Positions 24,313 through 59,193 of a stretch of DNA of 64,000 nt are shown in pieces. How positions within the stretch are numbered: the stretch's first letter is position 1; each line of letters begins with the position of its first letter. Source of the DNA: a bacterium (lineage in GTDB: Bacteria; JAAXHH01). The stretch spans positions 3,686,590 through 3,750,589 of the forward strand of contig OY762445.1 in assembly GCA_963665755.1 (NCBI GenBank). Reading direction: 5' to 3'. The notes under the pieces were generated by a model. The model did no database searches and was not told the DNA's origin. It worked only from the letters and a program-made list of their open reading frames with translations. A program made the translations under genes and the position numbers.

Positions 24313-24415
24313 GGCGGCGTAAGGTAGCGCGGCCAGCCCGCATCGCGCCGCCGTAAATGGCCGCGGCAGCGCACCGTAAATGGCCGCGGCGCCCGGTCAC
24401 CAGACCCCTCGCATC

Positions 24416-24874
24416 ATGCAACGGCTCAATTTTCCGGAATACGCATTCGAAATCGAATCGGACGACGCGGGCCGCAGCGTCATTTTCGACGGGGTCCGGC
24501 GCAGGTTCGTTCGCCTGACACCCGAAGAATGGGTCAGGCAGCACCTGGTGCGCTACCTGGTCGAGGACCGGGGCTTCCCGGCAGGCTGGGCGGCCGTGGA
24601 AAAAGGCTTCCAGTACGCCGGCACAGCCGTTCGCGCCGATGTGATCATGCATGATCGGAACGGCCGGCCGGTCCTGATGGGTGAATGCAAAGCGCCGGAG
24701 GTTCGCATGACCGAAGCCGTATTCGAGCAACTGGCCCGGTACAATTCGGTCATCAACGCCCGGTACCTGGTGGCTACCAACGGCAAGACGCACTACTGTT
24801 GCGAACACAAGGCCGGCGGCGGTTACCGCTTTCTTTCGGAACTGCCCCGCTTCGAGGGTGCCCGAGGAGTCTGA
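24416..24874 (+). CDS. Type I restriction enzyme HsdR N-terminal (PD-(D/E)xK-like) domain protein, standalone
   Basis: About 150 aa, resembling HSDR_N-type small proteins (ADVIMHDRNGRPVLMGECKAPE core). Confidence 0.5.
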   Translation: MQRLNFPEYAFEIESDDAGRSVIFDGVRRRFVRLTPEEWVRQHLVRYLVEDRGFPAGWAAVEKGFQYAGTAVRADVIMHDRNGRPVLMGECKAPEVRMTEAVFEQLARYNSVINARYLVATNGKTHYCCEHKAGGGYRFLSELPRFEGARGV

Positions 24875-24876
24875 TC

Positions 24877-25680
24877 GTGGCGGAAGGACTGATACTCGCG
24901 GCCCGGGAATCATTGGAACAGCGGGTCGAAGCCCTGGAGCAGGAGGGTTATGTCTTCTTCCCCGGTGCACTCTCCGGAGAAGAGGTCGCCGTATTGCGAA
25001 AAGCCATGGACCGGCTTGAAGCCCGGCCCGAGGAATACGACCGGCATACGGACCCCGAGACCCACGGGTTCCTGAACAAGTCCATCAACAATGTATTCAA
25101 TCGCGACCCCGTATTCCTGTCCTTTCTGGACCGTCCGGACGTCATCGACGTGGTCGAAGCCGCCCATGGACCGGACTGTCACGTCATCGGCATGACGGCG
25201 TGGATGACGGGCCCCGGCCGGCCGGACCAGGGCATCCACGTGGACTGGCAGCCGCTGGAACTGCCCGAAGACGTCATGGACGATCCGCGGGTCGAGGTGC
25301 CCGTTTACATCTCCACGGTCCACTATTATCTGGACGATCTCTACGAGGCCCTGGGCCCCACGCAGTTCATTCCAGGCAGCCACCGGGCCGGCCGCGTACC
25401 CGCCGCCGGGGAATCCGCCTGGCGCGGAGTCGAACCCCGCAGCATCCTCTGCGCGGCTGGAGACGCCGTCCTGTTTCGCTACGAGGTCTGGCACCGCGGG
25501 ACGGCGAACACGAGCGACCGGGTGCGCTACCTGCTCCAGGTCCACTACGCCCGGCGCATGATCACGCAGAAGTTCCCGCCCTACCTGAACCGGTTCCGGT
25601 TCGACCCGGCCATCCTGTCCCGCGCCACGGACCGCCAGCGCCGGTTGTTGGGCGAGCATGTGCAGGGCAATTACGACTGA
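24877..25680 (+). CDS. Phytanoyl-CoA dioxygenase (PhyH) family protein
   Basis: GTG start. PhyH-like double-stranded beta-helix with His/Asp...His iron ligands. Confidence 0.75.
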   Translation: MAEGLILAARESLEQRVEALEQEGYVFFPGALSGEEVAVLRKAMDRLEARPEEYDRHTDPETHGFLNKSINNVFNRDPVFLSFLDRPDVIDVVEAAHGPDCHVIGMTAWMTGPGRPDQGIHVDWQPLELPEDVMDDPRVEVPVYISTVHYYLDDLYEALGPTQFIPGSHRAGRVPAAGESAWRGVEPRSILCAAGDAVLFRYEVWHRGTANTSDRVRYLLQVHYARRMITQKFPPYLNRFRFDPAILSRATDRQRRLLGEHVQGNYD

Positions 25681-25794
25681 TTTTCCAAGGATCTATCGCG
25701 CGTCGAGGCGAGTATTTACTCGAGAATGTGTTGACGAGTAGCGACTGAAGATTGATAACACATCTTTAGCTTTCGAGTATCTTGGGAGATAGTC

Positions 25795-26010
25795 ATGAAC
25801 GAAGACAGTCGCTACGCTCGTAATGACGATGAAGTTGACACGCCTGCATTGTCTGCTCAAGTAAACGAGGAGTTCGAGAAGCTGCAGAAGAGGTTGGCGG
25901 AGTTGCGCCGCCAGGGTATACTGATTGGCGGCTATGGCCCGAGCAAGCCCTTTCGCCCGGTTGCCCGCGTTCCCGGAGGGTTAGCCCGATTTCTCGCCGA
26001 ACGGGAGTAG
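25795..26010 (+). CDS. Small antitoxin-like protein, putative partner of the adjacent truncated vapC
   Basis: 71 aa, lying 6 nt upstream of a PIN-domain N-terminus. SD-like GGGAGA precedes the start. Confidence 0.45.
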   Translation: MNEDSRYARNDDEVDTPALSAQVNEEFEKLQKRLAELRRQGILIGGYGPSKPFRPVARVPGGLARFLAERE

Positions 26011-26016
26011 GATTGC

Positions 26017-26165
26017 ATGGTTAAAACGCCTGCGATTTCCTCGATGGCGTACGTGGACACTTCTGCTATATTATCCATAGTCTTCGAAGAGCCGGATTGG
26101 GAGTTAACTGCGCACAGGCTGGCCGAGTTTCCCGTGCTGTTGTCGTCGAACTTGCTGGAAGCGGA
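26017..26165 (+). pseudogene. vapC: vapC (PIN-domain toxin), 3'-truncated remnant
   Basis: MAYVDTSAILSIVFEEP...LLEAEMRSA is the N-terminal ~45 aa of a PIN domain. The frame then loses similarity and overlaps the mod reading frame. Confidence 0.55.
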
Positions 26166-26633
26166 AATGCGTTCCGCGACCCACCCTATAACACAGGCAA
26201 CGAGGATTGGATCTACAACGATAGAGTAAACAGTCCGCTGATGAAGGCGTGGTTCGCGGAGCAAAGCCCGGTGGACGGCGAGGATCTGGAGGGACATGAC
26301 AAGTGGCTATGCATGATGTGGCCAAGACTTCACCTGCTCAAGGAACTGCTAGCAGACGATGGTGTCATTTTCGTGTCCATCGATGACAACGAGCAGCACC
26401 ACCTCCGGATGTTGATGGATGAGGTTTTTGGTGAAGATCGTTTTCTAGGGGAGTTTGTTTGGAAGAGCCGACAAAACAGAGATAACCGTAATGTGACTGG
26501 CGCATCAATCGATCACGAATATGTCCTTTGCTACGGAGCATCTATAAGAGGCGACGAAAGAAAGACCGATCAGTATTCGAATCCAGACAACGACCCAAGA
26601 GGAGACTGGGCTAGCGGTAACATGGTTGGGCTA

Positions 26634-27812
26634 GTGTCACGTCCCAGAAATAGCCTTACATAATCGTTCGATTTTGTGCAGGATCGATGTCGTGGTGGCG
26701 GTCCATACGAAAGGTTTTGACGTCTGGTTGTAGTTGTCGGTGAAGGTATGGATGCTTTCGATGAGTTCTTTCACGGATCTGAAGGAGCCCCGCCTGATGG
26801 CCTTCTGTGTGATGATATTGAACCAGATTTCGACCTGGTTGAGCCAGGATGCGTAAGTGGGGGTAAAGTGGATGTGGTATCTGGGTCGTTTCGCCAGCCA
26901 TCGCTTTACCCTGGTGTGCTTGTGTGTAGAGTAATTGTCGACGATCAAGTGCACATCGAGTGCTTTCGGGACGTTATCATCGATGTGGTTGAGAAACTGC
27001 AGGAACTCCTGGTGGCGGTGCCTGCGCTTGCATTGCGCCATAATCTCGCCGGAGGCGATGTCCAGGGCGGCAAACAACGTCGTGGTGCCGTGCCGGAGGT
27101 AATTGTGGGTTACGCCTTCCACGTATCCCAGCCCCATGGGCAAAAGCGGTTGGGTACGTTCCAGAGCCTGCGTCTGGCTCTTCTCGTCGACACAAAGCAC
27201 TATCGCCGCATCCGGCGGGTTCAGATACAGTCCGACAATGTCGTGCACTTTCTCGGTGAAGAAGGGATCGTTGGACAGCTTGAAGTGCTTCTGCCGGTGG
27301 GGCGCAATGCCCAGGGTGGACCAGATGCGCTGCACTTCGGATTTGGATATCTTCGTTTCGGCAGCGATGGACCGGCACGTCCAATGGGTGCTGCCATCGG
27401 GTGGTTTCGTGGTGAGCGTCTTGCGTATCAAGGCGGTGATGTCTTCGGCGACAACGCTGCGCGGTCTGCCCGGCCGGCGTTCATCGTAGAGCCCCATCAA
27501 CCCTTGCCGGAGAAAACGGTTGCGCCAGGTGCCCACGCTCTGCGCACTCAGCCCCACCTGCTGTGCAATCGCCCGGTTGCTGAGGCCGTCGGCGCTCAGC
27601 AAAATGATATGGGCGCGTCGCACGAGTCCGTGCGACAACGTACGCGACCGGGACAGTGACATCAGTTCCTCCCGGACCTGCGGAGACAACACAATCGGTT
27701 TCCTCGGACGACCGCGTCCCATGATTCTCTCCTTTGTCAAAGGTGTATCAAGCGTATGGAGTGAATATAGGACATCTGCAATATAAATCAAGTTATTTTA
27801 GGGACATGACAC
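26634..27812 (-). mobile_element. IS630-family insertion sequence, 1179 bp, inserted at CTAG with a TA target duplication
   Basis: Imperfect terminal inverted repeats: GTGTCACGTCCCAGAAATAGCC on the left, against the reverse complement of GGGACATGACAC... on the right. Flanking TA at 26632-26633 and 27813-27814 within a reconstructed CTAG target. Confidence 0.85.
26637..27722 (-). CDS. IS630-family DDE transposase
   Basis: 362 aa starting at MGRGRPRKP (HTH), with a DDE-type domain (CVDEKS ... VDNYSTHK). Looks intact. Confidence 0.88.
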
Positions 27813-28781
27813 TAGCAACTGAAGAATCTCGTCCAAATTTACATTTTGATCTAATTGATCCAGAAACGGGTACCAATTATGGCTGCCCTCCTAGAGGTTG
27901 GCGATATGACCTTGAACGCATGTATGAACTGATTTCGGAAGGAAGAATACTTTGGCCTGAAAACCCTAAAGGAAGGCCAAGGGTCAAAGTCTTTCTGAAG
28001 GAACTGAGAAATACCTTTACAGGATTTTCGTCCCTAATTGGCGAAGGGGTTTTCACAAGAAATGGGACTCTAGAAATAGAAGACATTTTTTCCTCAAGAG
28101 TTATTGAGTTTCCCAAGCCGTCTGAACTTGTGCGTCAGTTGATTCTTCAGGGATGTCCTGATGTGGGTATAGTTCTAGACTCCTTCGCCGGCAGCGGAAC
28201 AACTGCCCATGCTGTACTCGCCCTCAACAAAGAAGACGGCGGCAATCGCAAGTTCATTCTCGTAGAGTGTGAGGACTATGCTGACACCATTACAGCCGAG
28301 CGCGTGCGCCTGGTGAGTAAGGGCATTCCCAACTCGCAAGATGAGTCCTTGCAAGTAGGGCTCGGGGGTTCCTTTACCTACTGCACGCTGGGTGACCCAA
28401 TAGACGTCGAAGGGATGTTGACCGGCGAAGCGCTTCCAGATTTTTCGACTTTGGCAGCCTATTTGTTGCACACATCAGCAGGACTCTCTACCGGAGTCGA
28501 TTTACTGCAACCAGAGAACGAAGACGGGCTTTTTTACAGCAGTGACACTACCAACTACTACCTCATGTATAAACCTGACGTGGGTTATCTGAGCAGTAAC
28601 GAGGCGATGCTGAATGGGGAGCGGGCGCGGCGCATCAGTACATCAAGCCAAGAAGCTGGGGTGAAAGCCATTGTTTTCGGGCCTGGCAAATACATTGGCC
28701 AGCGCAATCTGACATCCATGGGTATCACCTTCTGCCAACTACCCTACGAGATACATAGAGCCGGGCAATAGGGAGTTCGTT

Positions 28782-31322
28782 GTGGAACTGAAGGAATACC
28801 AGGCCAATACGATTGAGGTGTTTGCTACCTGGCTGGACGCCGTCACTACGGCTCGACTACAGTCCCAGACTGCCATAGACGCTTTGAAGCAAGCGGGGAC
28901 CGCCATCACGATTCCCGGTGATCTTAATGACTATCCAAAGACGGCATGGCGCCAGTTAAAGAACTCCGGCCTTGTTGCGAATACCGCCGGCGAATACGTC
29001 AGTCGAACCGATGATGCGGACCGACCCATTCCCCACGTCTGCTTCAAAGTACCTACGGGAGGAGGTAAGACGCTACTTGCCGCCGCCGCGTTGCAGCGAC
29101 TCCGCCGGCAAACGGGACTGACACTGTGGGTCATGCCAACGCGTGCTATTTACGAACAAACCAAAGCGGCGTTGAAGATCCGGGAGCACCCATACCGGCA
29201 AATGTTGGAAATCGCCAGCGCAGGGCGGGTCAAGCTTCTGGAAAAGGATGACCTGTTTACCAGGTCGGATATAGACAATTACCTTTGCATCATGCTCCTC
29301 ATGCTACCTGCCGCCAACCGGCAGCGAGGTCGCGACTTCTTGCGGATGTTCCGTGATTCCGGGCGGTATCCCACGCTTTTTCCGGATAGCGACGATTTGT
29401 TTGGCGATGCCAGACTACTAAACGACTACCCTGACCTGGAGCGGGTTTCAAAACATGGTCCTGTGAAACACAGTCTTTTCAATGTGTTTAAAATGTTACG
29501 TCCGGTTGTGATACTGGACGAAGCACACAAGGCTTATGGCGCACGCAATTTAGAAGCCAATGAGGAGTTCGCGCGGTCAGTCAGCCGTCTCGACCCCAGC
29601 CTGGTGATCGAACTCTCCGCAACGCCGAACCGTGGGATAAGCAACCTACTGGTAGACATTACCGGTGTCGAACTTAAAAACGAGGAGATGATTAAGCTTC
29701 CGGTGCAAGTGACTTCGTTCACCAATGCCGATTGGCACTATACCCTGGCTCAGGCACACGACGAACTGGAGCGCCTTGACTCGGAAGCGAGATCATTGCA
29801 GATGAGCGACGGCAGTTACATCCGGCCGATTGCGGTGGTTCGCGTAGAGCGCACGGGAAGAGACCAACGGGACGGCGAGCGCGTGCACGCGGAGGACGTG
29901 AGAGAATACCTGATACAGAATCTTGGGGTTCATGAAGATGCCATTGCCGTCAAGTCGTCCGAATTGGATGAACTGGCGGATGCAGACTTACTTTCGGGAT
30001 ACTCCCCAATACGCTGGGTGATAACCAGGGCAGCTTTGATGGAGGGTTGGGACTGCCCATTCGCCTATCTGCTTGTCATGCTCGACAACACGAGTGCCCA
30101 GCGCGCCATCACGCAACTGGTCGGCCGGGTGATGCGACAACCTTACGCGCGTCGAACCGGTCGTGAGTCGTTGGATCAGTGCTATGTCTATTGTTGGAAT
30201 ACAAGAGTGGGCGAAGCGGTCGCACAGGTAAAGCGGGGATTGGAAGCGGAAGGGTTGACTGGCCTGGCGGACGCGGTGACCAGCAACTCGACAGACTTTC
30301 GACGGATCACCATACAAAGACGAGAAGGCCTGGAAGATAAAACCATATTCCTTCCATTGGTTTTGCATCAGGACGGTGATGGGTGGTGCGAGTTGGATTA
30401 CCAAACCCATATCCTTCCCAAAATCAATTGGAATGCGATTGAGGCGCCAGATCCGCAGAGGAGTCTTCCCGATCGCGCCGTCCGGCAATCCGCAAGCGTC
30501 GATGTTGGCGAAGTCCCTCCCGTTTTCTATTCCGAAACCGAGTTGAATATTGACAAGGCAGTTCAGGTAAATTGGATCGCCCGGCGACTGACGGACGTAC
30601 TCCCGAATCCGTGGCAGGCGGCTCGGGTGGCGCAGCAGTTTGTACAAAAGCTCTTGGCTGCAGGCGACTCTGAAAATGAGATTTACGATCGGCGTTCATA
30701 CTTGGCATTCGCTTTGCGGGACCACGCTTTGATACAGTTGCAACAGCAAGCTGAGAAGGTTTTTCGGTGTAAGCTGCGTAATGGTCAGATTCGATTCGAC
30801 TTGGAAGCAGGCCAACCGAATTTCCGAATGGTAGAGCGTTACGAGATACCTATTTCAAGCGATATGTCGCTACTGACCGGAAACGATGGGCGACAGGTAC
30901 AACTCAGCCTGTTCGAACCCATATATTCGCAACAGTTCGATTCGGCGTTGGAAGTGAGTTTCGCACGATACCTCGATGAACAAAAGGCATTGAAATGGTG
31001 GCACCGGGTGGCGGTCCGGCAACGTGGCGATTACTATCTCCGGGGCTGGAAACAGGAGCGCATCTGGCCGGATTTCGTTGCCATGGGTGGCGAGACGAAC
31101 GGGAAGCCCCATGTCCTGGTTTTCGAGACCAAGGGAGAGCACCTTCGTGGTAGTCCGGATACCGATTACAAGCAGCAAGTGCTTGAATCGTTGCAAAATG
31201 CCTTCAATTGCGGAACGATGACCGTCCATGACGGTCCGGCTACGGGTACGTTTCGTCTTGTGTTCAATGAAGCCGAGTTTCCAACGACCTTGACCAAGCT
31301 TGAACAGGCTTACCAAGCATGA
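28782..31322 (+). CDS. res: Type III restriction enzyme Res subunit (SF2 helicase plus endonuclease)
   Basis: Walker A VPTGGGKT, DEAH box ILDEAHK, and a C-terminal PD-(D/E)xK-like region. Immediately downstream of mod. Confidence 0.88.
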   Translation: MELKEYQANTIEVFATWLDAVTTARLQSQTAIDALKQAGTAITIPGDLNDYPKTAWRQLKNSGLVANTAGEYVSRTDDADRPIPHVCFKVPTGGGKTLLAAAALQRLRRQTGLTLWVMPTRAIYEQTKAALKIREHPYRQMLEIASAGRVKLLEKDDLFTRSDIDNYLCIMLLMLPAANRQRGRDFLRMFRDSGRYPTLFPDSDDLFGDARLLNDYPDLERVSKHGPVKHSLFNVFKMLRPVVILDEAHKAYGARNLEANEEFARSVSRLDPSLVIELSATPNRGISNLLVDITGVELKNEEMIKLPVQVTSFTNADWHYTLAQAHDELERLDSEARSLQMSDGSYIRPIAVVRVERTGRDQRDGERVHAEDVREYLIQNLGVHEDAIAVKSSELDELADADLLSGYSPIRWVITRAALMEGWDCPFAYLLVMLDNTSAQRAITQLVGRVMRQPYARRTGRESLDQCYVYCWNTRVGEAVAQVKRGLEAEGLTGLADAVTSNSTDFRRITIQRREGLEDKTIFLPLVLHQDGDGWCELDYQTHILPKINWNAIEAPDPQRSLPDRAVRQSASVDVGEVPPVFYSETELNIDKAVQVNWIARRLTDVLPNPWQAARVAQQFVQKLLAAGDSENEIYDRRSYLAFALRDHALIQLQQQAEKVFRCKLRNGQIRFDLEAGQPNFRMVERYEIPISSDMSLLTGNDGRQVQLSLFEPIYSQQFDSALEVSFARYLDEQKALKWWHRVAVRQRGDYYLRGWKQERIWPDFVAMGGETNGKPHVLVFETKGEHLRGSPDTDYKQQVLESLQNAFNCGTMTVHDGPATGTFRLVFNEAEFPTTLTKLEQAYQA

Positions 31323-31556
31323 TTTGGAGAGTAGTAGCACATTACGATAAGCCCCCATTAAGGCTGAGATACTGAAGTTCAAGTACTATCCATCGTTTTC
31401 CCAACGTTCAGCGGTACCTAGACAATCATGAATCGCATTGAGCGTATCTTACGATATCGCCTCTTGTGGAATCGAGCCTCATACTGTGCGCCTTGGCGCG
31501 GCTGTTGTCGTCCTATAATATTGAAGCCCTTACGTCTCTATTGAGGAGGAAACAAA

Positions 31557-32543
31557 ATGAAGGTCGCTAGTTTCATATTCGTTCTCGCCTTCTGTATCTC
31601 GTTCGTTCTCCAGGCCGCCGCGCAGACGCGCGAGCAGGGACCTTGGTGGCCCCATCCCATCTGGGGCAAGGACGACCAGTCGGGCGGCTCCAACTGGATC
31701 ACGCCCGAAAAGGTGCTGAAGGCCCTGACCCTGGTCAAGACGGGGCAGATCTACGAAATCGGCCAGGTGTACAGCGCGGACATGCCTCTCTTCGGCGAGC
31801 GGACCTATTCCATGGTACTGCCGGGATCACCCACGGGCGAACCCATGGGCGACAACAACCTGGTCTATTACGACGAGTTCCTGGTGGCCGAGATAGGCCA
31901 GGTCGGCACGCAGTTCGATGGACCGGGCCACATCGGCGAGCGGATCACGATGGCGGACGGCACGGAAAAGGACGTATTCTACAACGGATTCACCAATGAG
32001 GAGATCAAGGGACCCTACGGACTCGTAAAGCTGGGCATCGAGCACATCGGACCCTTCATCACCCGGGGCATCCTGGTCGATGTGGCCGCGTTCAAGGGCG
32101 TGGAATCCCTCGACCACGGCTACGAGGTCACGGTGGTGGACGTCGAAGGCGCGCTACAGCGCCAGGGCATTGCGATGGAAAGTCTGGAGCCGGGAGACGC
32201 CTATTTCTTCCGTTACGGCTGGGCGCGGCACTGGAACGACCACGACAAGTACAACACCGATCCCCCGGGCATCGGAATGGAAGTCGCCCGGTGGGTGGTC
32301 GAGAAGCAGGCTTCGATGATCGGTTCGGATCAGTGGACGACCGAGGTGGTGCCCAATCCGGATGCCGGCCAGGCCTTTCCGGTCCACCAGGAACTCATCA
32401 CCCGGAACGGCGTATGGAATCTTGAGAACATGAACCTGGACGAACTTTCGGGCGACGGCGTCTACGAGTTCCTCTTCATTCACACGCCCATTCGATTCAA
32501 GGGTGCGACGGGTTCGCCCGCCCGCCCGATCGCCATCAGGTAA
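31557..32543 (+). CDS. Secreted cyclase-family protein (kynurenine formamidase-like, putative cyclase fold)
   Basis: Signal peptide. HxGTHxDxPxH-type motif region (GTQFDGPGHIGE). Confidence 0.7.
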   Translation: MKVASFIFVLAFCISFVLQAAAQTREQGPWWPHPIWGKDDQSGGSNWITPEKVLKALTLVKTGQIYEIGQVYSADMPLFGERTYSMVLPGSPTGEPMGDNNLVYYDEFLVAEIGQVGTQFDGPGHIGERITMADGTEKDVFYNGFTNEEIKGPYGLVKLGIEHIGPFITRGILVDVAAFKGVESLDHGYEVTVVDVEGALQRQGIAMESLEPGDAYFFRYGWARHWNDHDKYNTDPPGIGMEVARWVVEKQASMIGSDQWTTEVVPNPDAGQAFPVHQELITRNGVWNLENMNLDELSGDGVYEFLFIHTPIRFKGATGSPARPIAIR

Positions 32544-32777
32544 TTCGAGACGACTCCCAAATCCCGGCGTGCTTACTTGTAACGTAGGCTTGGAACGCCG
32601 AGTACACGGACGAGTTCGGGAAATGGTGAGCCGGTTTTGCCATCCGAAAACAGAATTATATTGGCAACGGCTGTCGAATTGCTGATGACGTACAGACCAT
32701 GACTCACGGACCGGGCAGAGGTGGAAGGTTGTCCAACCTTACAAATGGTTGACCTGTTTCGGCGGCCCACCTAGCCT

Positions 32778-33610
32778 TCATGGCGAGTACATTCGCGAAG
32801 TCGAGCCGACGTAACAGTATTTCATGGAAATCCCGTCCATACAGATGACGCTCTTGCCCCTCCCGAAGGCGGTGAGCCCGTCAGGGGAGAACCCGGTGTA
32901 GCTCAACAGTAGACCGCGAGACCAACTCGCCTTGTCCTGTACCTTGGCGTTAAAGGAACGAAGCGTCGTAGCATCGACCAAGTCGTTAGTCCATCCAGCT
33001 TCGAGCAGATAGATATCGCCCCCCGACACGAAACTGCCGTCAATCTGCTCGCCCACCAGGCGAAAGGAAGGTCGTGCAGACAGCCCGTAGGCATCAAACA
33101 TATCCTTCAGGAACTTTTCGAATGCATAGCCGCGAGGTTGCGGCTCCAGTTTGGACAATTGCAACAAGCGATGCGCAAGATCCGAAGCGACTGTTGCATC
33201 CATTTGTGGTATTTCTGACTGTGCCGAATCGCTATAGGACCTCTGACGTGTTTGGCGACGTGCCCCCCCAGTCGTTCAATGATTCTAAAGAAGGCAACTC
33301 GTACCTTATCATCCAGTTCCGGATAGTCGTGAGTCACGCTGCTGACTTCACGGTATTCCCAAAGTGCGTTCAGCGTATCAAGAACCGTTTTTCGGTTCGC
33401 GTGTCGTAAGAAATAGCGCAGGCGCTTCGCCTTGCTCTCGCCGTCAACTGCCCAACGGGGATGGTAGACATCGACTCGTAGTTCTTCTTGGAAGAACTCG
33501 GCGAAGGTCCGATTCGAGAAATCTAGTACGTAGCCGTCTTCCATACCGAAAACCTTGTCGAGGATCGGGATGTCCACCGTTCGGATCTTCGGATTCGATG
33601 TTCCGTTCAT
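32778..33610 (-). pseudogene. Restriction-endonuclease-like (Mrr-cat/PD-(D/E)xK) domain protein with an apparent frameshift
   Basis: Two overlapping minus-strand ORFs, 33107-33610 and 32778-33203, lie in different frames. The downstream ORF carries an Mrr_cat-like core (GYAFEKFLKDMF...IDGSFVSGGDIYLLEAGW). Confidence 0.5.
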
Positions 33611-33612
33611 AA

Positions 33613-34479
33613 CTACCTCAAGCTAAGTCTTTTTAGCCAAGCGTCAACCTGCCCGAAGGCGTCCTGCTGCCACTGATCCGCTGTGCGATCGTCAAGTAGG
33701 TGGGAACCTTCCACGAACCTCCTGACGCTCGTCGGTCCGAAGTCTTCGATGTCCCGGAACTTCCCGGAGATCAATTGGTAGCCTTTTCGGGCTGATGCTA
33801 CGTCGAGGAGTGGCCGGGTTGCTTCGACGAGCGCGTCGATCCCATTGGGGTAATTTCGGATTGAATAGTAGATGTCGTAGGCGTCTTTGGGTTTATGACG
33901 CTGGTCTATGGCATAGCCTTTCATGGCCAGGAGGGCCGGAATCGACGCAACGGCAATACGAACGAGATTCCTTCCCCCACCGGGCATGTCTCCGTCGATG
34001 GCGACCGTCTGATTGTACATGAGCGCGAGCTCAGCCCCGTCGGCACGCTGGACGGCAAATTCGCTGAGAAGCGGTGGCCTGTTCTTTGCGGTCTGCGCGT
34101 CGCGTGGCATCAGGAAGTCTACTACGACATCTATGTCGGGTCCGCCATCCCTGGCAGGTACAGTACGCACGAGTTGAAAGCGCGACATATTCTCCTGTTG
34201 ATGGTAACCATGTACTTGGAGGGCTTCGACAAGTCGGACATATTCGCCATCGCCCAAAGCGGACGGATCGAGATCAAGATCCACGTCTCCTGTGCCGATA
34301 TGGGGCATGTCGGATTCGCTCAGCAACAGCCAGGGAACGGCGCCGCCGATTATCGCAAACTTGCCTTCGAAGCTGGCGAGGACCTGGCCGATCTCGATTA
34401 TCACCGATCTGACTGCTTGTGTCGTCCGGTCATCGTAGTCGACGGCGGATTGAGGTTCTCTCATAACCATGGAAAGCAC
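33613..34479 (-). CDS. Nucleotidyltransferase, AbiEii/AbiGii toxin-family-like
   Basis: IIGGAVPWLL ... GTGDVDLDLD matches the GGxA...DxDxD signature of a nucleotidyltransferase fold. Its 19-nt overlap with the upstream gene indicates operon coupling. Confidence 0.55.
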   Translation of the reverse strand: MLSMVMREPQSAVDYDDRTTQAVRSVIIEIGQVLASFEGKFAIIGGAVPWLLLSESDMPHIGTGDVDLDLDPSALGDGEYVRLVEALQVHGYHQQENMSRFQLVRTVPARDGGPDIDVVVDFLMPRDAQTAKNRPPLLSEFAVQRADGAELALMYNQTVAIDGDMPGGGRNLVRIAVASIPALLAMKGYAIDQRHKPKDAYDIYYSIRNYPNGIDALVEATRPLLDVASARKGYQLISGKFRDIEDFGPTSVRRFVEGSHLLDDRTADQWQQDAFGQVDAWLKRLSLR

Positions 34480-35612
34480 TTCGAGGCCAGATGGTTGGCG
34501 GCCTCACGGTCCCGATCGTTGCCTTTCCAAAGATCGAGGTATGTGATAATCGGGCTGGTGCAGAAAACGCCCGGCACCGGCTGAACGGCATCTTCGAATA
34601 GACTCTCATCTTTTGGGATGTACAGGATGACATTTGCTCCCTTTGCAGCATGAGTCAGTTCCAATGTCTCCTCCAGCATATGAGCGCCAGGTTCGTCGGT
34701 GTACAAGCTGTGTGTGCCACCCCGGGAGAAGGGAGCAAACCATTGAGCGGCCGAATTTGACGCGAGAATTGCACGCGGATGCTGTGGTTCCGGATTCAGC
34801 TTACCCGACAACTGTTTGATGAGTTGTTCACCGTGAAAAAGCGTGTATCTGCTGATGCGGTGATCGGTCAGCTGCCGGTAGTTCTCTCGCCATGTCCTTA
34901 ATAGCGCATCCGGCTGGACAAGGTTGATGCCGTTGTCCCGTTTTTTAATCCATTCCCGTTCGAGCAGGGCTTTGCGAACGTTGCTCGCATGGCCGAGGCT
35001 CACATTGGCCGCTACCGCCAGGTCGGTCACGCGCCACACCCGATTGGGATCGCGAAGGAGAGCACGCAGGATTGCTGCAGCCTTCGGAGTGAAGATCGAC
35101 CGCAGTGCGCGGGTTTCGGATTTGGGCCTGTCTGCGACCTCTCGATCGATATAGACATTGCTGAAGGCAAGGTGAGCGTTCCCGAACAGATCCAGGTAAG
35201 CGATATCATGATCTGAACAGATCGACCGAGACTCGGGAGACAGATAGGAACTCACAAGCATGGGGATCATACGTCGATCGGGATCCCCTTGACTGTACTG
35301 ATGAGCATGCGCCAAGTAGCCCTTGAGTTGATAGACTGCAGACCGAACAAAAAGGGGAGCACCGTTCGACTTTACTTCGATGATAAGTGCATAGGTGTCA
35401 TCGCCGTGCTCGAACTCGATCCATCCGTCGATGATGTGGTCGCTTCCGAGTCGCCGATCATTGCGAACCGAACTGACCACCAAGCTTGGCACTTGGTCTA
35501 GCAGGGTGCGGACCGCGTTCACGGCCTCGGTTTCCAGATTGTTTACTGATAAAGGACTTTTCATCATATGTTGAAAATAACTATTATAGCGAAATAAGTC
35601 AAGCAATTTCAC
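34461..35612 (-). CDS. AbiEi-like partner protein: N-terminal PD-(D/E)xK-like nuclease domain plus central winged HTH
   Basis: IIDGWIEFEHGDDTYALIIEVKSNG looks like a nuclease core. VWRVTDLAVAANVSLGHASNVRKALLEREWI is a winged HTH. It lies upstream of the nucleotidyltransferase gene and overlaps it. Confidence 0.45.
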   Translation of the reverse strand: MKLLDLFRYNSYFQHMMKSPLSVNNLETEAVNAVRTLLDQVPSLVVSSVRNDRRLGSDHIIDGWIEFEHGDDTYALIIEVKSNGAPLFVRSAVYQLKGYLAHAHQYSQGDPDRRMIPMLVSSYLSPESRSICSDHDIAYLDLFGNAHLAFSNVYIDREVADRPKSETRALRSIFTPKAAAILRALLRDPNRVWRVTDLAVAANVSLGHASNVRKALLEREWIKKRDNGINLVQPDALLRTWRENYRQLTDHRISRYTLFHGEQLIKQLSGKLNPEPQHPRAILASNSAAQWFAPFSRGGTHSLYTDEPGAHMLEETLELTHAAKGANVILYIPKDESLFEDAVQPVPGVFCTSPIITYLDLWKGNDRDREAANHLASKCFPWL

Positions 35613-36186
35613 TTATACGATGTTTTCATCGGAAACTGATGACGCCTTTAATAGTGAAAAATGCCGATAGGCTATCCCAAACCGCCGTCTTTCATGACAT
35701 GATGACCCCGGTCTTGTATAGGATGATTACGATTTGGCCAGTACTTGATCGTTCAAGTCTCTACGGCTACCATACAAAAACTCGATTCAGCTTCAGCCAG
35801 CGGGTCGCCGCCCGAACGCGCTTGCTTTCGATTTACCAGTGTCCGCTTTCGGGCCTTGTCCAACGAGACCAAGGCAACGTTACCGAGTTCGATCTAACGC
35901 TTGGTGCCTCCAAAGGCACGCTGTTAAATCCAGCTTGGGATTCCGGTAGGTTGGACAACAGGTACGAGCCGTTGCTGGCGGCATACCCTCTGGGCGGGAC
36001 CGAGCGGGCCTAGTCGAGATGGTGGCCTTTGGGCTTGGTTTTCCGGGAGATGAGAGGTAGATTCTTGCCACAAACCTTTACAAGTTTTATAGGGTATGGT
36101 AGTGAATTACAGGGTATGTTGTAATCTGCTTAAGGTATTTGGAAATACCAATTCAGTTATGATTCTTGTACTTACAGGAGGTTGTG

Positions 36187-36975
36187 ATGAGTGAAAATCC
36201 AGTAGGATTTAAAGGAAAAGTGGTCATCGTAACCGGGGGCGCGAAAGGCATCGGCGGGGGGATCGTCCGCGCCTTCGCCGGTGAGGGCGCCCGCGTGCTC
36301 TGCGCCGACATCGACGACGATGCGGGTGCGGAGATCGCCTCGTCCAGCGACCGGATCCGCTACGTCCACGCCGACGTGACCACGAGCGAGGTGTGCCGTT
36401 CTCTCGTGGAGACCGCGACGGAATCCTGGGGCGGGGTGGACGTCCTCTGTAACAACGTGGGAATACAGCCGACTACGAGTTATGTGCCCGCCCACGAGAT
36501 GTCCGAGGAGCAATGGGACCGGATCATCGACGTGAACCTCAAGAGCCGTTTCCTTATGGTCAAGTACTGCGTTCCCGTGATGAAGCGTCGCGGAGGAGGG
36601 GTGATCATCAACACGGCCAGCGTGCAAGGACTCCAGTCGGCTAAAGGGATCTCTGCCTACGCGGCGAGCAAGGGTGGCGACCTGTCGCTGGTGCGTCAAC
36701 TGGCGCTGGATTACGCCGAAGACAATATCCGTGTGGTGGCGGTCAACCCCGGCACCATCGAAACGCCGCTTCTGCAGGAGGCCATCGATTCGATCGGTGG
36801 CGACGAGGATGAAATACGGACGGACATGGCCTCCCGGCACGCCCTGAACCGCCTCGGTAGTCCGGAGGATATCGCCAACGCGGTGCTCTTTCTCGCGAGC
36901 GACCGGGCTTCCTTCATCACGGGTGAATTCGTGAACGTGGACGGGGGATTGATGGCTCGGGGGGCGTGGGCCTAG
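36187..36975 (+). CDS. SDR-family oxidoreductase
   Basis: TGGAKGIG Rossmann motif and a YxxxK catalytic dyad. RBS AGGAGG precedes the start. Confidence 0.85.
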   Translation: MSENPVGFKGKVVIVTGGAKGIGGGIVRAFAGEGARVLCADIDDDAGAEIASSSDRIRYVHADVTTSEVCRSLVETATESWGGVDVLCNNVGIQPTTSYVPAHEMSEEQWDRIIDVNLKSRFLMVKYCVPVMKRRGGGVIINTASVQGLQSAKGISAYAASKGGDLSLVRQLALDYAEDNIRVVAVNPGTIETPLLQEAIDSIGGDEDEIRTDMASRHALNRLGSPEDIANAVLFLASDRASFITGEFVNVDGGLMARGAWA

Positions 36976-54928: not shown

Positions 54929-55669
54929 CTACCCCCCGAAAGCCTCCATGTAAAGCCTGGTGCGCTCGTTCAGGACGCCGTAGAAGCCGCGGGTCTCCGG
55001 GTCTTCGCTGTCCCGCCAGAAGGTGGCGGGAATCCCGGAATCGTTGGCCAGGGGACCCCGGTCCCGGTGACCGTAGTAGATCTGCGCGGTCTTTCGGACG
55101 GCCCGCGTGGGACGGGTGGTCGCCGTGTGGAGGACCGATACGTTGAAGAGGGCGCAGGTGCCCGCCGGTCCGTGGAGGTCGTAGACGCCCCGCTCCAGTT
55201 GCGCGCTGTTCTCCTTCAGTACGGGCTGCTCGATCCCTTCGGGCGATAGGGAAAAACAGTGGGTGCGCTCATCCACGTCGGTGAAATAGACGATGAGCTG
55301 GATGTAGTCCATGCGCAGGGGATGGTCGAACCAGTGGGCTTTGTCGCGGTGCCACCGCTGGTGGAGCGCGCCCTTGTATGGCCCCATGGACCGCAGCCCG
55401 ATTTCCCCGAAACAGAGCGGACCGCCCATCAATTCCTCTATGGTCCCGTAGATGGCGGGATGGCGGACCAGTCCGTCGAAGGCCGGCGTGGTAACGAGCG
55501 CGTCGTAGTTGGCCTCCTGGTGATGGCCGTAAGGATGCCAGAAATAGGGGAACCGGCGGCGGTCTTCATCGAAGAGATCGCGAAAATGATCCACTTCCTC
55601 GTCCGAGAGGACCTTGCCCAGGTTGATGAATCCGTTCTGACGAAAGAACGCCAGGTCAGTCTGCTTCAT
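54929..55669 (-). CDS. Phytanoyl-CoA dioxygenase family protein
   Basis: PhyH-like 2OG-Fe(II) oxygenase fold. Confidence 0.7.
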   Translation of the reverse strand: MKQTDLAFFRQNGFINLGKVLSDEEVDHFRDLFDEDRRRFPYFWHPYGHHQEANYDALVTTPAFDGLVRHPAIYGTIEELMGGPLCFGEIGLRSMGPYKGALHQRWHRDKAHWFDHPLRMDYIQLIVYFTDVDERTHCFSLSPEGIEQPVLKENSAQLERGVYDLHGPAGTCALFNVSVLHTATTRPTRAVRKTAQIYYGHRDRGPLANDSGIPATFWRDSEDPETRGFYGVLNERTRLYMEAFGG

Positions 55670-55845: not shown

Positions 55846-56550
55846 TCACACCGACCGCGTTATGCCCCCGTCGACCCGCAGGTTCTGGCCCGTGATATAA
55901 CCCGAACCGGGTGACAGCAGGAATGCGGCCGTTTCCGCGATCTCCTCCACCGTGCCGTAGCGTCCCATTGGAATGCGCGACCTGAATGCTTCCGATTCGG
56001 GGAGACTGTCGATGAATCCCGGCAGGAGATTGTTCATCCGGATGTTGTCGCCGGCGTGGTTGTCGGCGTAGATCTTCGAAAAACTCGCCAGGGCCGCCCT
56101 GAAAGGCGTCGAAACCGGGAAGTAATGCTCCGGTTCGAAGGCGGCGAAGGTGGATATGTTGACGATCGAACCGCCGCCCTGTTCCACCATGATCGGGGTG
56201 ACCAGGCGCGCCATGCGCACCACATTGAGAAACACGATATCCAGTCCCTCGTGCCAGTCTTCGTCCGGTATATCCAGCAGGCTGCCCTTGGGCGGATGGC
56301 CGGTGCTGTTGACGACGCCATCTATCCGGCCGTGGGCTTCCATGGCCAGGTCCACCAGCTTCCGCAGGTCGGCTTCGTCCGTGACGGAGCCCGTCACGCC
56401 GATGCCTCCCAGTTCACCTGCGAGTGATTCCGCCGCTCCGGAGGGAGACAGCAACGCGACGGCCCACCCCTGTCCGGCCAGGTTGCGCGCGATGGCCGCT
56501 CCCATGCCCCTTCCCGCTCCCGTGATGACCGCTACTTGTTGCGAACTCAT
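55846..56550 (-). CDS. SDR-family oxidoreductase
   Basis: TGAGRGMG Rossmann motif. Confidence 0.82.
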   Translation of the reverse strand: MSSQQVAVITGAGRGMGAAIARNLAGQGWAVALLSPSGAAESLAGELGGIGVTGSVTDEADLRKLVDLAMEAHGRIDGVVNSTGHPPKGSLLDIPDEDWHEGLDIVFLNVVRMARLVTPIMVEQGGGSIVNISTFAAFEPEHYFPVSTPFRAALASFSKIYADNHAGDNIRMNNLLPGFIDSLPESEAFRSRIPMGRYGTVEEIAETAAFLLSPGSGYITGQNLRVDGGITRSV

Positions 56551-56780
56551 ACCTCTCCCTTCGGCGTATTGACTGTTTTAAGCCATGCAAGATGTCGCTG
56601 GAACGATTTCGGCTCATCTCCATGCAGATTCGGGATTTGTTGATGAAGACTCACGCTTCGAACATGGTGGTATATAAACAAATGCATTCGGGAATAGTAG
56701 TTTTGTACTTTAATTGTTGACGGTTCACCCCTGCCGTGTTATCTTGGCGTCTCCATTCACTATACCCCAGGAGACGCACC

Positions 56781-58061
56781 ATGACAACCAATTTTGCAAA
56801 CCGCACCTTGTACCACGGCGACAATCTTGCTTTCATGCGGGCCATGAACAGCGAATCCGTGGACCTGATCGCCACGGATCCGCCGTTCAACAAGGGGCGC
56901 GATTTTCACGCCACGCCCGACAGCCTGGCCGCCGGCGCGAAGTTTCAAGATCGATGGTCATGGGAGCGCGATGTACATGAAGAATGGGTGGATCAGATCG
57001 CCGACGATTACCCCCACGTCCTGAACGTCATCCAGGGTTCGCGGTCCAGTTACGGCGATGACATGGGCGCGTTCCTGTGCTTCATGGCCGTGCGACTGAT
57101 TGCCATGCGGCGGCTTTTGAAGCCCACAGGCTCCATTTACCTCCACTGTGACCCTACGGCCTCACACTACTTGAAGGAACTCATGGACGCGGTGTTCGGA
57201 CGCAGGATGTTCAGGAATGAAATTGTGTGGTGCTATGGTTCCGGCGGAGCAAGCAAACAGCACTTTTCGAGAAAACACGACCTTATCCTGTGGTATTCGC
57301 GGGGGGGGGGGGGGGGCTGGACCTTCAACGTCGATGAAATCCGCGAACCCTATTCGTCTCCACACAAATCAATGACGCCCAAGATAATAGGGAACAAGTC
57401 ATATCAAAAGATGCACCCGCTGGGACGGATTCCTTTCGACTGGTGGCAGGTCCCCATAATGACCAACAGTGATAAGAATCGCACGGGCTGGCCGACACAA
57501 AAGCCCCTGCCGTTGTACGCCCGGATCATTAAGGCGTCCAGCAACCCTGGCGACGTGGTCCTGGATCCTTTCGCCGGATGCGCGACGACGCTTGTTGCCG
57601 CCGAGAAACTGGGGCGGCAATGGGTCGGGATCGACATATGGGAAAAGGCGGCCGACGTGGTCCGCGCCAGGCTGGAAAACGAGGTGGGGCTGTTCGGAGA
57701 CGTGACGTTTACCGACCGGCCCCCGGAGCGGACCGACGACGGAGACACGGCCGCCCCGTTCCTGCGGGTCAAAGAACGGGTGGCCGAACCCGACGGCCCC
57801 AGGTGGAGCAGGGCGAAGATGTACGAGTATTTGTTGACGCAGCACGGCCCCCGGTGCCAGGGATGCGACCGGACGTTTGACGATCCCCGTTACCTGGAAT
57901 TGGACCACAACACGCCGCGGGCCGATGGCGGCATAAACCACGTTAGCAACCGCATCCTGCTTTGCGGTCCGTGCAACCGCCTGAAATCCAACACGTACAC
58001 GTTATCGGGGCTTAGACGGGAGAACAAGCGGCGGGGGTTCATGAAGGGAGGGACAGCATGA
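56781..58061 (+). CDS. DNA methyltransferase (beta-class N6/N4, DPPF motif) fused to a C-terminal HNH endonuclease domain
   Basis: TDPPFN (motif IV), LDPFAGCATT (motif I), and a C-terminal HNH motif (LELDHNTPRADGG...NRILLCGPCNRLKSN). RBS AGGAGA lies before the ATG at 56781. Confidence 0.8.
   Translation: MTTNFANRTLYHGDNLAFMRAMNSESVDLIATDPPFNKGRDFHATPDSLAAGAKFQDRWSWERDVHEEWVDQIADDYPHVLNVIQGSRSSYGDDMGAFLCFMAVRLIAMRRLLKPTGSIYLHCDPTASHYLKELMDAVFGRRMFRNEIVWCYGSGGASKQHFSRKHDLILWYSRGGGGGWTFNVDEIREPYSSPHKSMTPKIIGNKSYQKMHPLGRIPFDWWQVPIMTNSDKNRTGWPTQKPLPLYARIIKASSNPGDVVLDPFAGCATTLVAAEKLGRQWVGIDIWEKAADVVRARLENEVGLFGDVTFTDRPPERTDDGDTAAPFLRVKERVAEPDGPRWSRAKMYEYLLTQHGPRCQGCDRTFDDPRYLELDHNTPRADGGINHVSNRILLCGPCNRLKSNTYTLSGLRRENKRRGFMKGGTA
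57301..57316 (+). repeat. Homopolymeric G16 tract inside the methyltransferase-HNH coding sequence (encodes GGGGG)
   Basis: Sixteen consecutive G at 57301-57316. The current length keeps the frame (YSRGGGGGWTF); adding or removing one G would truncate the protein. Confidence 0.9.
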
Positions 58062-58123
58062 ACGATCGCATCGAACGAAAACGCGACGGTGACGATTTCC
58101 AGATATTCCCGGATGATGACGAA

Positions 58124-58522
58124 TCAGAAGACGTTGAAGAAAGCGAAGACGACCAGACAGATCAGACCGAGGAAGAAAGCCAGTAACGCGAGGCGGTTAA
58201 CCCACGTCGTGAAACCTGTTGCCCATCCATCCTTCTTGACGTTGTTCCGGACGTTGGCCGTGGTCTTCTTGTAGCCCATTTCGCTGAACACGTACGATGA
58301 GACTGTCGCGGCCAGGGTAATGACCCAGCAGAATGCAAACCACGTAAACAGGTTTTCGTACTGTGGTTCAGGGTTCATGGGGATATGGATTTTGACATAG
58401 AGCGTAATCGGTACTCCCAGGGCACAGATTTTCAGCAGGGCCTGATCCAGACTGGATCGTTGCTTTTCAGTTTTCTCACGGAGGATCGTTAAGACTTCAT
58501 TTTTTTCAACAGCGTTCATCAT
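58124..58522 (-). CDS. Small membrane protein with two transmembrane helices (hypothetical)
   Basis: Two strongly hydrophobic C-terminal helices. No recognizable family. Confidence 0.4.
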   Translation of the reverse strand: MMNAVEKNEVLTILREKTEKQRSSLDQALLKICALGVPITLYVKIHIPMNPEPQYENLFTWFAFCWVITLAATVSSYVFSEMGYKKTTANVRNNVKKDGWATGFTTWVNRLALLAFFLGLICLVVFAFFNVF

Positions 58523-58530
58523 GGTACCTC

Positions 58531-59193
58531 CTACGCGAACAGTGCATCCATGAAGGAATCCCACGGCCTGGCAACGGAGTCGTCGGTATTGACCGCACTC
58601 CTAATAAAACCCAGGATACCCTTGCCTGTCAAGTCTTCCGCGACCTGGGCGACCACGTTGCCGTCACGCTCCACCGCCCCGATGATCGGGGTCTTGTCGG
58701 TACCACGGCCACGCTTAGAGGTGTTGCCGCCTTCCGGCTCATCGTCCCGCTTGTTGCGTTTGCGGGGCTTGCCGCCGACATACGTTTCATCGGCTTCGAT
58801 AATCCCGGCCAGCATGGGGGCCTGGTCGGATGCCATACCAGCACGGATACGCTGGAGCATGAACCACGCCGTTTTCTGATTCAGGTCCAGGTCGCGGGCC
58901 AGTTGCGGACTGGATATGGACTTCTTGGCATTCACCACCAGGGCAATCGCCGCAAACCACTTCGGCAGGGGGATGTGGGTACCCTGCATGATCGTGCCGG
59001 ACAGGACGTTGAATGAGGACTTGCAATCGTGGCAGTTCCAACGCCCGACACGGCTCTTGAGGTTCGACCGGCGGGCCTTTTCCGTACTGCCGCACAGGGG
59101 ACAGTAGGCGCCGTTTGCAAAGCGGATCGCTTCCAAGTGGTCGATACAGGCTTCTTGTGTCGGGAAGCGGCGGATGGTTTCAAAGAGGTTCAT
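58531..59193 (-). pseudogene. IS1595-family transposase, N-terminal zinc-ribbon/HTH part only (DDE domain missing)
   Basis: MNLFETIRRFPTQEACIDHLEAIRFANGAYCPLCGS...CHDCKSSF is the characteristic IS1595 N-terminus. The ORF stops at about 220 aa, against about 320 aa for an intact transposase. Confidence 0.7.

Follow-up and report, generated by a model that had tools for sequence, protein, structure and literature searches.

Two slots around a core cyclase gene

We describe a stretch of 64,000 nucleotides from a bacterial genome (contig OY762445.1, assembly GCA_963665755.1), and in particular the roughly 10 kb between a PhyH dioxygenase gene and an SDR gene. Two inserts of defense genes lie there, with a cyclase-family gene between them. 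The insert in slot 1 carries a putative antitoxin gene, the remains of the PIN-domain toxin gene vapC, and the mod and res genes of a Type III restriction-modification system. The insert in slot 2 carries an AbiE-type pair, AbiEi-like and AbiEii-like, followed by an Mrr-like nuclease pseudogene. We call the whole stretch the window, or W, and use L-numbers for loci of related or compared genomes. The features are listed below, with functions predicted from sequences, models and positions (IS, insertion sequence; GC3, GC content at third codon positions; aa, amino acids).

24877-25680, plus strand: PhyH dioxygenase gene (Pfam PF05721; GC3 0.82), the core left border of slot 1
25681-31556, plus strand: slot 1 insert, ~5.9 kb including an IS; putative antitoxin, vapC, mod, res
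25795-26010, plus strand: 71-aa putative antitoxin, frame intact, now an orphan; role assigned from position
26017-26177, plus strand: 5' remnant of vapC (PIN), codons 1-54 of 135; the open frame then enters mod out of register and stops at 26229
26177/26178, no strand: deletion junction, ~520 bp missing (vapC codons 55-135, a 72-bp spacer and mod codons 1 to ~67)
26178-26633, plus strand: Type III mod, first surviving piece, starting at motif IV (DPPY)
26634-27812, minus strand: IS630-family element, 1179 bp, with imperfect terminal inverted repeats and a TA duplication
27813-28771, plus strand: Type III mod, second piece (C-terminal half; PADLOC MTase_III 6e-80)
28782-31322, plus strand: Type III res, 846 aa, frame intact (PADLOC REase_III 3e-188, model 1-871 of 883; Pfam ResIII)
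31557-32543, plus strand: cyclase-family (kynurenine-formamidase-like) gene, 328 aa (Pfam PF04199), separating the slots
32544-36186, minus strand: slot 2 insert, ~3.6 kb; three-gene operon with promoter region, plus a replacement 5' region for SDR
~32704-33610, minus strand: Mrr-like nuclease pseudogene (N-terminal ~115-aa helical domain, Mrr_cat, conserved tail)
33613-34464, minus strand: AbiEii-like nucleotidyltransferase, 283 aa, intact (Pfam PF08843, 25.1 bits, cut-off 22.5)
34461-35567, minus strand: AbiEi_2-like partner, 368 aa, intact (Pfam PF09952, 23.3 bits, cut-off 21), overlapping abiEii by 4 bp
35575-35625, minus strand: putative promoter TTGACt / TATAAT under a GTGAAA...TTTCAC inverted repeat, a candidate AbiEi operator
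36187-36975, plus strand: SDR gene (Pfam), the core right border; its first ~9 codons are unlike the ancestral form

The GC content is ~0.61 in the flanks versus 0.51-0.56 over 25.7-36.2 kb. Measured against 52 core 1-kb windows (mean 0.614, standard deviation 0.025), slot 1 has a GC of 0.529 (z = -3.4) and slot 2 a GC of 0.534 (z = -3.3). No size-matched core chunk was as far from the core in tetranucleotide profile as either slot (0/84 for slot 1, 0/94 for slot 2), and GC3 is 0.49-0.71 in island genes versus 0.75-0.88 in core genes. Both slots therefore have the composition unlike the host chromosome that is typical of defense islands and hotspots. A preliminary description, made from the letters of this DNA, had proposed a lower-GC defense island between PhyH and SDR, and the DNA is indeed low in GC and foreign. 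Its gene calls also held up (antitoxin-like, truncated vapC, IS-split mod-res, Mrr-like, and AbiEii with a partner), and it was right that the defense cargo is damaged, as all three of its modules carry lesions.

Where we part from that description is in its view of one 10-kb island. It overlooked the cyclase gene, which is core-like in GC (0.611), GC3 (0.82) and tetranucleotide profile (rank 58/104), and it stands between PhyH and SDR in L086, L087, L165 and L171-L179. The cyclase gene is core, not cargo, and it splits what would otherwise be a contiguous acquired segment into two slots. The genes around it form a conserved run, GFO-HSDR_N_2-PhyH-cyclase-SDR / sdhBA. The PhyH stop codon is the exact end of homology to the empty-site locus L086, and PhyH is kept in most relatives.

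We recovered the relatives by a metagenome scan with PhyH and by exact-protein look-ups. A scan of the genome collection with SdhB gave best matches of 77-78% identity in many phyla, none of them syntenic. The state of the two slots in each relative is as follows.

L086 (89% DNA identity): slot 1 empty, 28 bp; slot 2 empty, 27 bp
L087 (68-73% protein identity): slot 1 without defense genes; slot 2 with a sulfatase
L165 (~84% DNA identity; 3.8-Mb contig): slot 1 empty; slot 2 with an intact three-gene operon
L171/L172 (GCA_028874685.1, named Gemmatimonadota) and L174-L177 (81-90% protein identity): slot 1 empty; slot 2 with the two AbiE-type genes alone
L170 (87-96% protein identity): PhyH itself missing; slot 2 with a GmrSD_C nuclease gene
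L173 (84-94% protein identity): slot 1 empty; slot 2 with a truncated GmrSD_C gene
L084 (94-98% DNA identity): slot 1 with an intact cassette; slot 2 with a nuclease that lacks the catalytic domain
L179/L180 (L179 77-89% DNA identity): slot 1 with an intact cassette; slot 2 with two genes alone
L178 (98-99.5% DNA identity; 3.85-Mb circular contig): both slots filled, all reading frames open

The empty site in relatives that the preliminary description had set as a test is therefore present: L086 reads PhyH, 28 bp, cyclase, 27 bp, SDR. The slots are filled independently of one another, with slot 1 empty and slot 2 full in L165 (where the slot 1 spacer is ~60-90 bp), L171 and L174, and with other slot 2 cargo in L170. 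This is what is seen at defense hotspots, which have low-GC cargo between conserved genes and alternative cargo or empty sites in relatives (here L086, L165, L171, L174, L170 and L173). As in defense islands, toxin-antitoxin, restriction-modification and abortive-infection genes are clustered and an IS is present. The locus differs from the usual hotspot in having two adjacent micro-slots, in ~28 bp spacers around one core gene, inside an apparent metabolic operon. It also differs in that the slot 2 insert replaces the first SDR codons, and in having no integrase, tRNA gene or mobile-element backbone. In W, a tRNA scan and an Rfam scan found no tRNA gene and no known RNA element marking the slots, and a search for direct and inverted repeats at the island borders found only the IS630 ends to be meaningful, with no att-like repeats at either slot.

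The SDR gene begins with MSENPVGFK in W versus MSEFEGKVV in L086 and L087. The replaced N-terminus (W 36187-36215) is present in all cassette-bearing genomes, and the short form MSEF(E/Q)GKVV is that of L086/L087. In L165, an 11-bp direct repeat, TTCGAAGGGAA, lies on both sides of the slot 2 insert (reverse complement, 5758 and 9331), and the cyclase side of the insert has a relic SDR start consisting of a ribosome-binding site, an ATG and five codons. A relic SDR start on the cyclase side together with a replacement SDR 5' end suggests that the slot 2 insert entered within the first SDR codons and rebuilt the SDR start.

The lineage belongs to uncultured Gemmatimonadota. It is probably sponge-associated, because L085 comes from MKWU, an Aplysina aerophoba sponge metagenome, so that at least one close relative is derived from a marine sponge. 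Sponge symbionts were found in the same data set to be enriched in restriction-modification and toxin-antitoxin genes (PMC5649159, PMC5099237).

We also saw variation in the core flanks. PhyH is absent in L170 (8807-9001), and the SDR gene is in two fragments in L173 (6819-7615). There is a third variable spot between SDR and sdhB, where the genes overlap by 4 bp in W and are separated by 200-800 bp in relatives (L165 2024-2570; L170 12357-12551; L171 13325-13543). This spot holds one or two small open reading frames (ORFs) of 64-72 aa, for which we found no family match.

The slot 1 cassette and its lesions

Toxin and antitoxin. In L084, L178 and L179 the PIN gene always follows the 71-aa ORF at a distance of 6-7 bp, and from this conserved position we consider the ORF a putative antitoxin. 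The arrangement in these relatives is that of a type II VapBC system, with a small ORF, 6 bp and then a 135-aa PIN protein. It differs from VapBC in that we could match the upstream protein to none of the known antitoxin families, and in W the PIN-domain toxin is no longer complete, as 54 PIN codons are left. Over codons 1-54, the L084 gene and the remnant are 100% identical. The PIN match of the remnant (12-54) scores 18.4 bits, below the cut-off of 23.6, and the full 135-aa gene of L084 scores 30.1 bits.

The deletion. The preliminary description saw modules overwriting one another, with the 5' region of mod having replaced the 3' end of vapC. The relatives do not agree with this. L084 and L178 have an intact vapC and then an intact mod, and W is without ~520 bp. 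The deletion joins what is position 1318 to 1840 in L084 and position 8057 to 8577 in L178, and no microhomology is visible at the junction (26177/26178). On these alignments, the vapC/mod junction is a plain deletion that runs across two neighboring intact genes.

The insertion sequence. What is left of mod is divided in two by the IS630 element. The first piece matches PADLOC MTase_III (1.5e-51, model positions 69-198) and Pfam N6_N4_Mtase, and the second is 94% identical to residues 247-565 of the L084 Mod protein. The element has an intact transposase of 384 aa (26637-27791), which scores 270 bits with the NCBIfam IS630 model (cut-off 100) and matches DDE_3 at full length. Its ends are 23-nt inverted repeats (87%), with a TA duplication at 26632-3 and 27813-4 inside a CTAG site; the DDE_3 transposase, inverted repeats and TA duplication are all those of the IS630 family. 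L084 and L178 are without the element, and when we took it out together with one TA, the mod frame was restored (NMVGL running on into ATEESRPN). The contigs L001 and L002, which we return to below, both stop inside the element, which suggests that further IS630 copies exist elsewhere in the genome.

The restriction-modification genes. The order of mod and then res, with MTase_III and REase_III as the best PADLOC matches and a full-length Res, is that of an EcoP15I-like Type III system. Res (a superfamily 2 helicase plus nuclease) is encoded directly downstream of mod and has the same length in L084, L178 and L179. What differs in W is Mod, which is without its first ~67 codons and split by IS630. 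It has neither a complete catalytic core nor its own start and is hence null, while Mod is intact in L084 and L178. The relatives differ from other Type III systems in having the small-ORF/PIN pair upstream of mod, perhaps co-transcribed with it. In Type III systems, Res depends on Mod for DNA binding and cleavage, and Res alone cannot cut.

The slot 2 operon and the loss of its third gene

The Mrr-like gene and the AbiEii pair had been described as separate modules, but they belong to one conserved three-gene operon. The order AbiEi-like, AbiEii, Mrr-like with gaps of 0-4 bp recurs in the unrelated contexts of L166, L167/L168 and L169, and there is a partial copy in L164; in each unrelated context the homology stops at the reading frames. 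The intact operon of L165 encodes proteins of 368, 285 and 301 aa with 4-bp overlaps. The third gene is kept in the operon in 5/5 close-subfamily contexts and in 3/7 sampled plasmids.

AbiE is a type IV toxin-antitoxin and abortive-infection system made of AbiEi and AbiEii (Dy et al. 2014, as summarized in PMC13064643). The slot 2 pair resembles it in having a protein with a winged helix-turn-helix (wHTH) and an AbiEi domain, then a 4-bp overlap and a nucleotidyltransferase of the DNA-polymerase-beta type, and an inverted repeat over the promoter. The AbiEii-like protein is a member of the AbiEii nucleotidyltransferase family, with GG...GDVDLD nucleotidyltransferase motifs in its translation, and it has the same length in L165, L166, L167, L178 and L179. 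The upstream partner has the expected wHTH (~161-216) and C-terminal AbiEi_2 antitoxin domain, and a 78% homolog bears the NCBI name AbiEi family antitoxin. It is atypical in that its 368 aa include an extra N-terminal domain resembling PD-(D/E)xK nucleases, with D47, E64 and K66 kept in ~90% of homologs. Foldseek searches with an AlphaFold2 (AF2) model found this alpha-beta domain to be similar to EndoMS/NucS and XisH (E 2e-4 to 2e-3) and the wHTH to be similar to ArsR/MarR. The "nuclease plus HTH" partner of the preliminary description is therefore a good prediction at the level of the modeled fold.

The GTGAAA...TTTCAC repeat that overlaps the promoter is present upstream of the partner gene in nine cassettes, unrelated contexts included. 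It fits autoregulation of the AbiEi type, which the summary in PMC13064643 gives for the two-gene AbiE.

The slot 2 system is not a two-gene system, and in this it also departs from AbiE: a third co-oriented gene, encoding an N-terminal domain and Mrr_cat, is part of the conserved operon. A PADLOC run, suggested earlier as a check, recognized the locus in part. It gave MTase_III, REase_III and a weak AbiEii match, and none of its models, those for AbiEi included, matched the AbiEi-like partner or the Mrr-like protein. PHROGs gave no phage-family match for any cassette protein. The AbiE-type pair of slot 2, with its nuclease-like domain and an unrecognized third gene, is a new variant; the island itself is of a well-known kind.

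The Mrr-like gene. That the nuclease gene is broken was already evident from the sequence alone, but the damage is not one frameshift. The gene differs from its L178 counterpart by three indels and no more: a loss of 4 nt at 32831/2, a +1 at 33251 and a +1 at 33263, the last being a change from G6 to G7 in the run 33262-33268. A single frameshift in the G run, which we considered, was excluded by the alignments with L165 and L178, both of which show three indels, and simple phase variation is excluded with it. Once reconstructed, the protein can be aligned over its whole length, across all three frames, with homologs of ~299 aa, the identity reaching 82%. Its C-terminal domain has a restriction-endonuclease fold (Foldseek: the Rpb5 N-terminal domain, AF1548 and BamHI), and the intact homologs have the Mrr_cat PD-(D/E)xK domain with D...ExK that is seen in Mrr and other Type IV endonucleases. 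The N-terminal domain is different, as it is not Mrr_N and occurs elsewhere on SIR2, cyclase and hydrolase proteins; the W copy differs further in being a pseudogene.

The catalytic motif, D187...E200-A-(K/R)202, is kept in 60/60 aligned homologs. It reads EAG in W, with Gly at the K/R position, and VAG in L178, so W has no intact D...(E/Q)xK motif of the kind that the intact homologs have. With EAG in one and VAG in the other, the nuclease was probably already dead in the common ancestor of W and L178.

Among the other relatives, the nuclease is intact in L165. L178 has an open frame with the point-mutated motif, L084 has an in-frame deletion of the whole Mrr_cat domain, and L171 and L174 have two different deletions that leave the first ~13-20 codons. 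From these states, the nuclease was inactivated independently in at least four to five ways in this lineage. Wherever the cassette is present, the AbiEi and AbiEii genes are always full-length, whatever the state of the nuclease.

Recent inactivation and its possible order

The lesions in W are recent, because the sister L178, which is 98-99.5% identical, has all frames open. The divergence of W and L178 is ~0.3% over 28-35 kb, and every indel in their 13-kb alignment falls in slot 2. Compared with L084, res has a ratio of nonsynonymous to synonymous substitution rates (dN/dS) of 0.13, which is like that of core genes (cyclase 0.13, PhyH 0.075) and suggests that its Mod partner died recently. 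The preliminary description called the locus a graveyard, which overstates its age: the frames are open in a sister at ~0.3% divergence, and res is at 0.13. The lesions are also not assembly errors, because L001 and L002, two independent metagenome assemblies from different samples, carry the same sequence and the same lesions, the G7 run included. In L001 (8438-8483, near W 39260) there is a 44-bp insertion inside sdhA relative to W, which splits the gene call.

The divergence between loci is mosaic. When W is compared with L084, the core genes are 96% identical and abiEii is 82% identical (dS 0.60 vs ~0.12 in the core; dN/dS 0.18), and the antitoxin with the 5' end of vapC is 100% identical over 383 bp. 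When W is compared with L165, the core is 84% identical and the abiEi-like gene 91%. From this mosaic we infer that related strains may have exchanged cassette alleles, with the conserved flanks serving for homologous recombination. A side observation concerns W and L178, whose divergence rises to 4-6% over 35.0-37.5 kb. This stretch spans the 5' half of the abiEi-like gene, the spacer, SDR and the 3' end of sdhB, and is consistent with a recombination tract.

We believe that the locus very probably consists of two insertion slots flanking a core cyclase, each with a defense cassette, both of which were broken very recently in this strain. The short PhyH/cyclase and cyclase/SDR spacers would act as separate hotspots for defense cargo. 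Slot 1 would have received a co-oriented cassette of a small putative antitoxin, a PIN toxin (vapC) and Type III mod and res, and slot 2, in the opposite orientation, an operon of an AbiEi-like regulator or antitoxin, an AbiEii toxin and an effector made of the N-terminal domain and an Mrr-type nuclease. Both cassettes may then have been inactivated in an order that spares the cell. In slot 1, the ~520-bp deletion took the end of the vapC toxin gene together with the beginning of mod and left the antitoxin in place. Losing the PIN toxin with the antitoxin kept should be safe, and losing mod should disarm the Type III system with no self-restriction, because Type III Res cannot cut without Mod. 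The IS630 copy would have landed in the CTAG site of mod either before or after the deletion. In slot 2, the Mrr-like nuclease would have lost its catalytic residue first and then acquired the three indels. AbiEi and AbiEii stay intact, as we would expect of an addictive toxin-antitoxin pair that is hard to lose.

We weighed this against four other explanations. A single 10-kb island, acquired once and with modules that compete and overwrite each other, would account for the similar GC of the two low-GC stretches (0.529 and 0.534) and for the fact that W, L084 and L178 have cargo in each of them. It is very improbable, however, given that the intervening cyclase gene is core by composition and synteny, that the slots are independently occupied (L165, L171 and L174 have cargo in slot 2 alone; L170 has other cargo there), and that the vapC/mod junction is a simple deletion when set beside intact neighbors. 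The frameshifts could instead be reversible switches, so that the Mrr-like gene (and perhaps mod) is phase-variable through a homopolymer and is off rather than dead. One of the indels, the G6 to G7 change at 33262-33268, is of the right kind for this, but the other two (+1 at 33251 and -4 at 32831/2) are outside repeats, L084, L164 and L165 have interruptions in the G run, a Gly occupies a strictly conserved catalytic position, and mod was lost to a 520-bp deletion and an IS. We consider such switching extremely improbable.

It is just as far from probable that the lesions are sequencing or assembly artifacts and that the cassettes are intact in the organism. Homopolymer errors are common in metagenome-derived genomes, and the L001 and L002 contigs do break at the IS. 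Against this, the sequence recurs unchanged in two other assemblies from different samples, G7 run and mod/IS junction included. The IS, which has inverted repeats, lies in a CTAG site with a clean duplication of TA, and the deletion and the 4-nt loss are unlike homopolymer errors. We give more thought to the idea that the surviving genes are kept for new jobs, with the antitoxin as an anti-addiction factor against incoming vapBC, Res as a helicase and AbiEi/AbiEii causing abortive infection as a pair in its own right. The 100% identity of the antitoxin and vapC 5' end between W and L084 over 383 bp, with flanks at 96%, would fit, as would the retention of AbiEi and AbiEii without the nuclease in L171, L174 and L179, and the res dN/dS of 0.13. 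But with lesions this recent, a low dN/dS mostly reflects time spent intact, res would have to be expressed without the promoter and start of mod, and we know of no Type III Res that is active without Mod. We therefore think new jobs unlikely.

Several points weigh against our two-slot explanation and the roles given to its genes. No integrase, tRNA gene, att site or mobile-element backbone is present at the slots to point to an insertion mechanism. L086 may be either primitively empty or, given the 11-bp repeat in L165, the product of precise excision, so that the change at this site may be a gain or a loss. The relatives are metagenome assemblies, in which population heterogeneity is not visible. 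The 71-aa ORF has no match in Pfam, NCBIfam, PADLOC, PHROGs or PDB, the AbiEii and AbiEi_2 matches are just above the Pfam thresholds, and the AF2 model of the AbiEi-like partner is usable for the first ~220 residues and poor after that. The Mrr-like gene is also found alone in Vibrio, R. etli and Aurantiacibacter, and behind VapBC in Novosphingobium.

A decayed defense island is a routine kind of locus. This one has a near-complete series of states (both slots empty, one full, both full and intact, both full and broken), and a sister at ~0.3% divergence dates the lesions. If the order proposed above is correct, it would be a natural example of cassette death that avoids self-killing, in which the toxin and the methylase go first, and the antitoxin and a Mod-dependent nuclease are left. 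The repeated loss of the nuclease beside a persistent pair is direct comparative evidence that the parts of a cassette differ in their cost and "stickiness".

The third gene that accompanies the AbiE-type pair went unrecognized by PADLOC v2, Pfam, NCBIfam and PHROGs, and it is a lead either to a new family of effectors or to an AbiE variant with three genes. Its N-terminal domain of ~115 aa (33266-33610, minus strand) has no model in Pfam, PADLOC, PHROGs or NCBIfam. This domain is nevertheless widespread (1519 cluster representatives), and nearly all of the best 150 listed matches have it at their N-terminus. We also found it fused to a ThsA-like SIR2, a Pycsar-like cyclase and an alpha/beta hydrolase (P0342, P0374 and P0423). 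The SIR2 fusion was considered as part of an AbiE operon and excluded, since the Myxococcus fulvus copy is a stand-alone gene.

On plasmids from cultured alphaproteobacteria, Aminobacter pAA03 (L183) and S. meliloti pMl1 (L184), full-length nuclease homologs that are 44-46% identical lie between AbiEi/AbiEii and Hachiman. The pairs there are canonical, with AbiEi (DUF6088; PADLOC 1e-66) and AbiEii (1e-107). On Mesorhizobium pM0123d (L188) a nuclease homolog lies between DUF6088 and Hachiman, with a gap of ~1.1 kb for which no AbiEii gene is listed. In Novosphingobium (L185) the homolog overlaps vapC by 4 bp. The best-120 homolog lists of the nuclease and of the AbiEi-like partner apparently have 14 source entries in common. 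Coupling of the nuclease to toxin-antitoxin pairs thus appears to be frequent, and not obligatory because the nuclease stands alone in the three genera named above. Among the papers searched, we found none linking AbiEii with an Mrr-type third gene, although their silence is not proof of novelty.

Tentatively, the third gene may be a member of an uncatalogued family of anti-phage effectors that combine the helical N-terminal domain with interchangeable killing domains. These effectors would preferentially be wired directly behind toxin-antitoxin pairs that stabilize or control them (AbiEi/AbiEii in several phyla, VapBC in Novosphingobium). We find this possible but lean against it. If it is true, the four to five independent inactivations in one lineage, with survival of the pair, would demonstrate that the effector has a cost and that the pair is addictive.

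Some smaller features of the window lie outside the two slots. Immediately upstream of PhyH is a stand-alone HSDR_N_2 gene (24380-24874), which has the N-terminal domain of a Type I restriction R subunit. It is defense-like, yet it is core, and we found it at the same position in all relatives, including the distant L087. The spacer between GFO and HSDR_N_2 (24313-24390) contains a short tandem repeat of ~23 bp, whose copy number is different in L178 and L085. There is also a second small low-GC stretch at 56736-59193 (GC 0.54-0.56). It holds a gene (56736-58061, plus strand) whose product joins an N6_N4 DNA methyltransferase to a C-terminal HNH nuclease, with pieces of an IS1595-type transposase (58124-59193, minus strand) adjoining it. 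Beside this stretch is a second pair of PhyH (54929-55669, minus strand) and SDR (55846-56550, minus strand) genes, paralogous to the arrangement of the genes that flank the slots.

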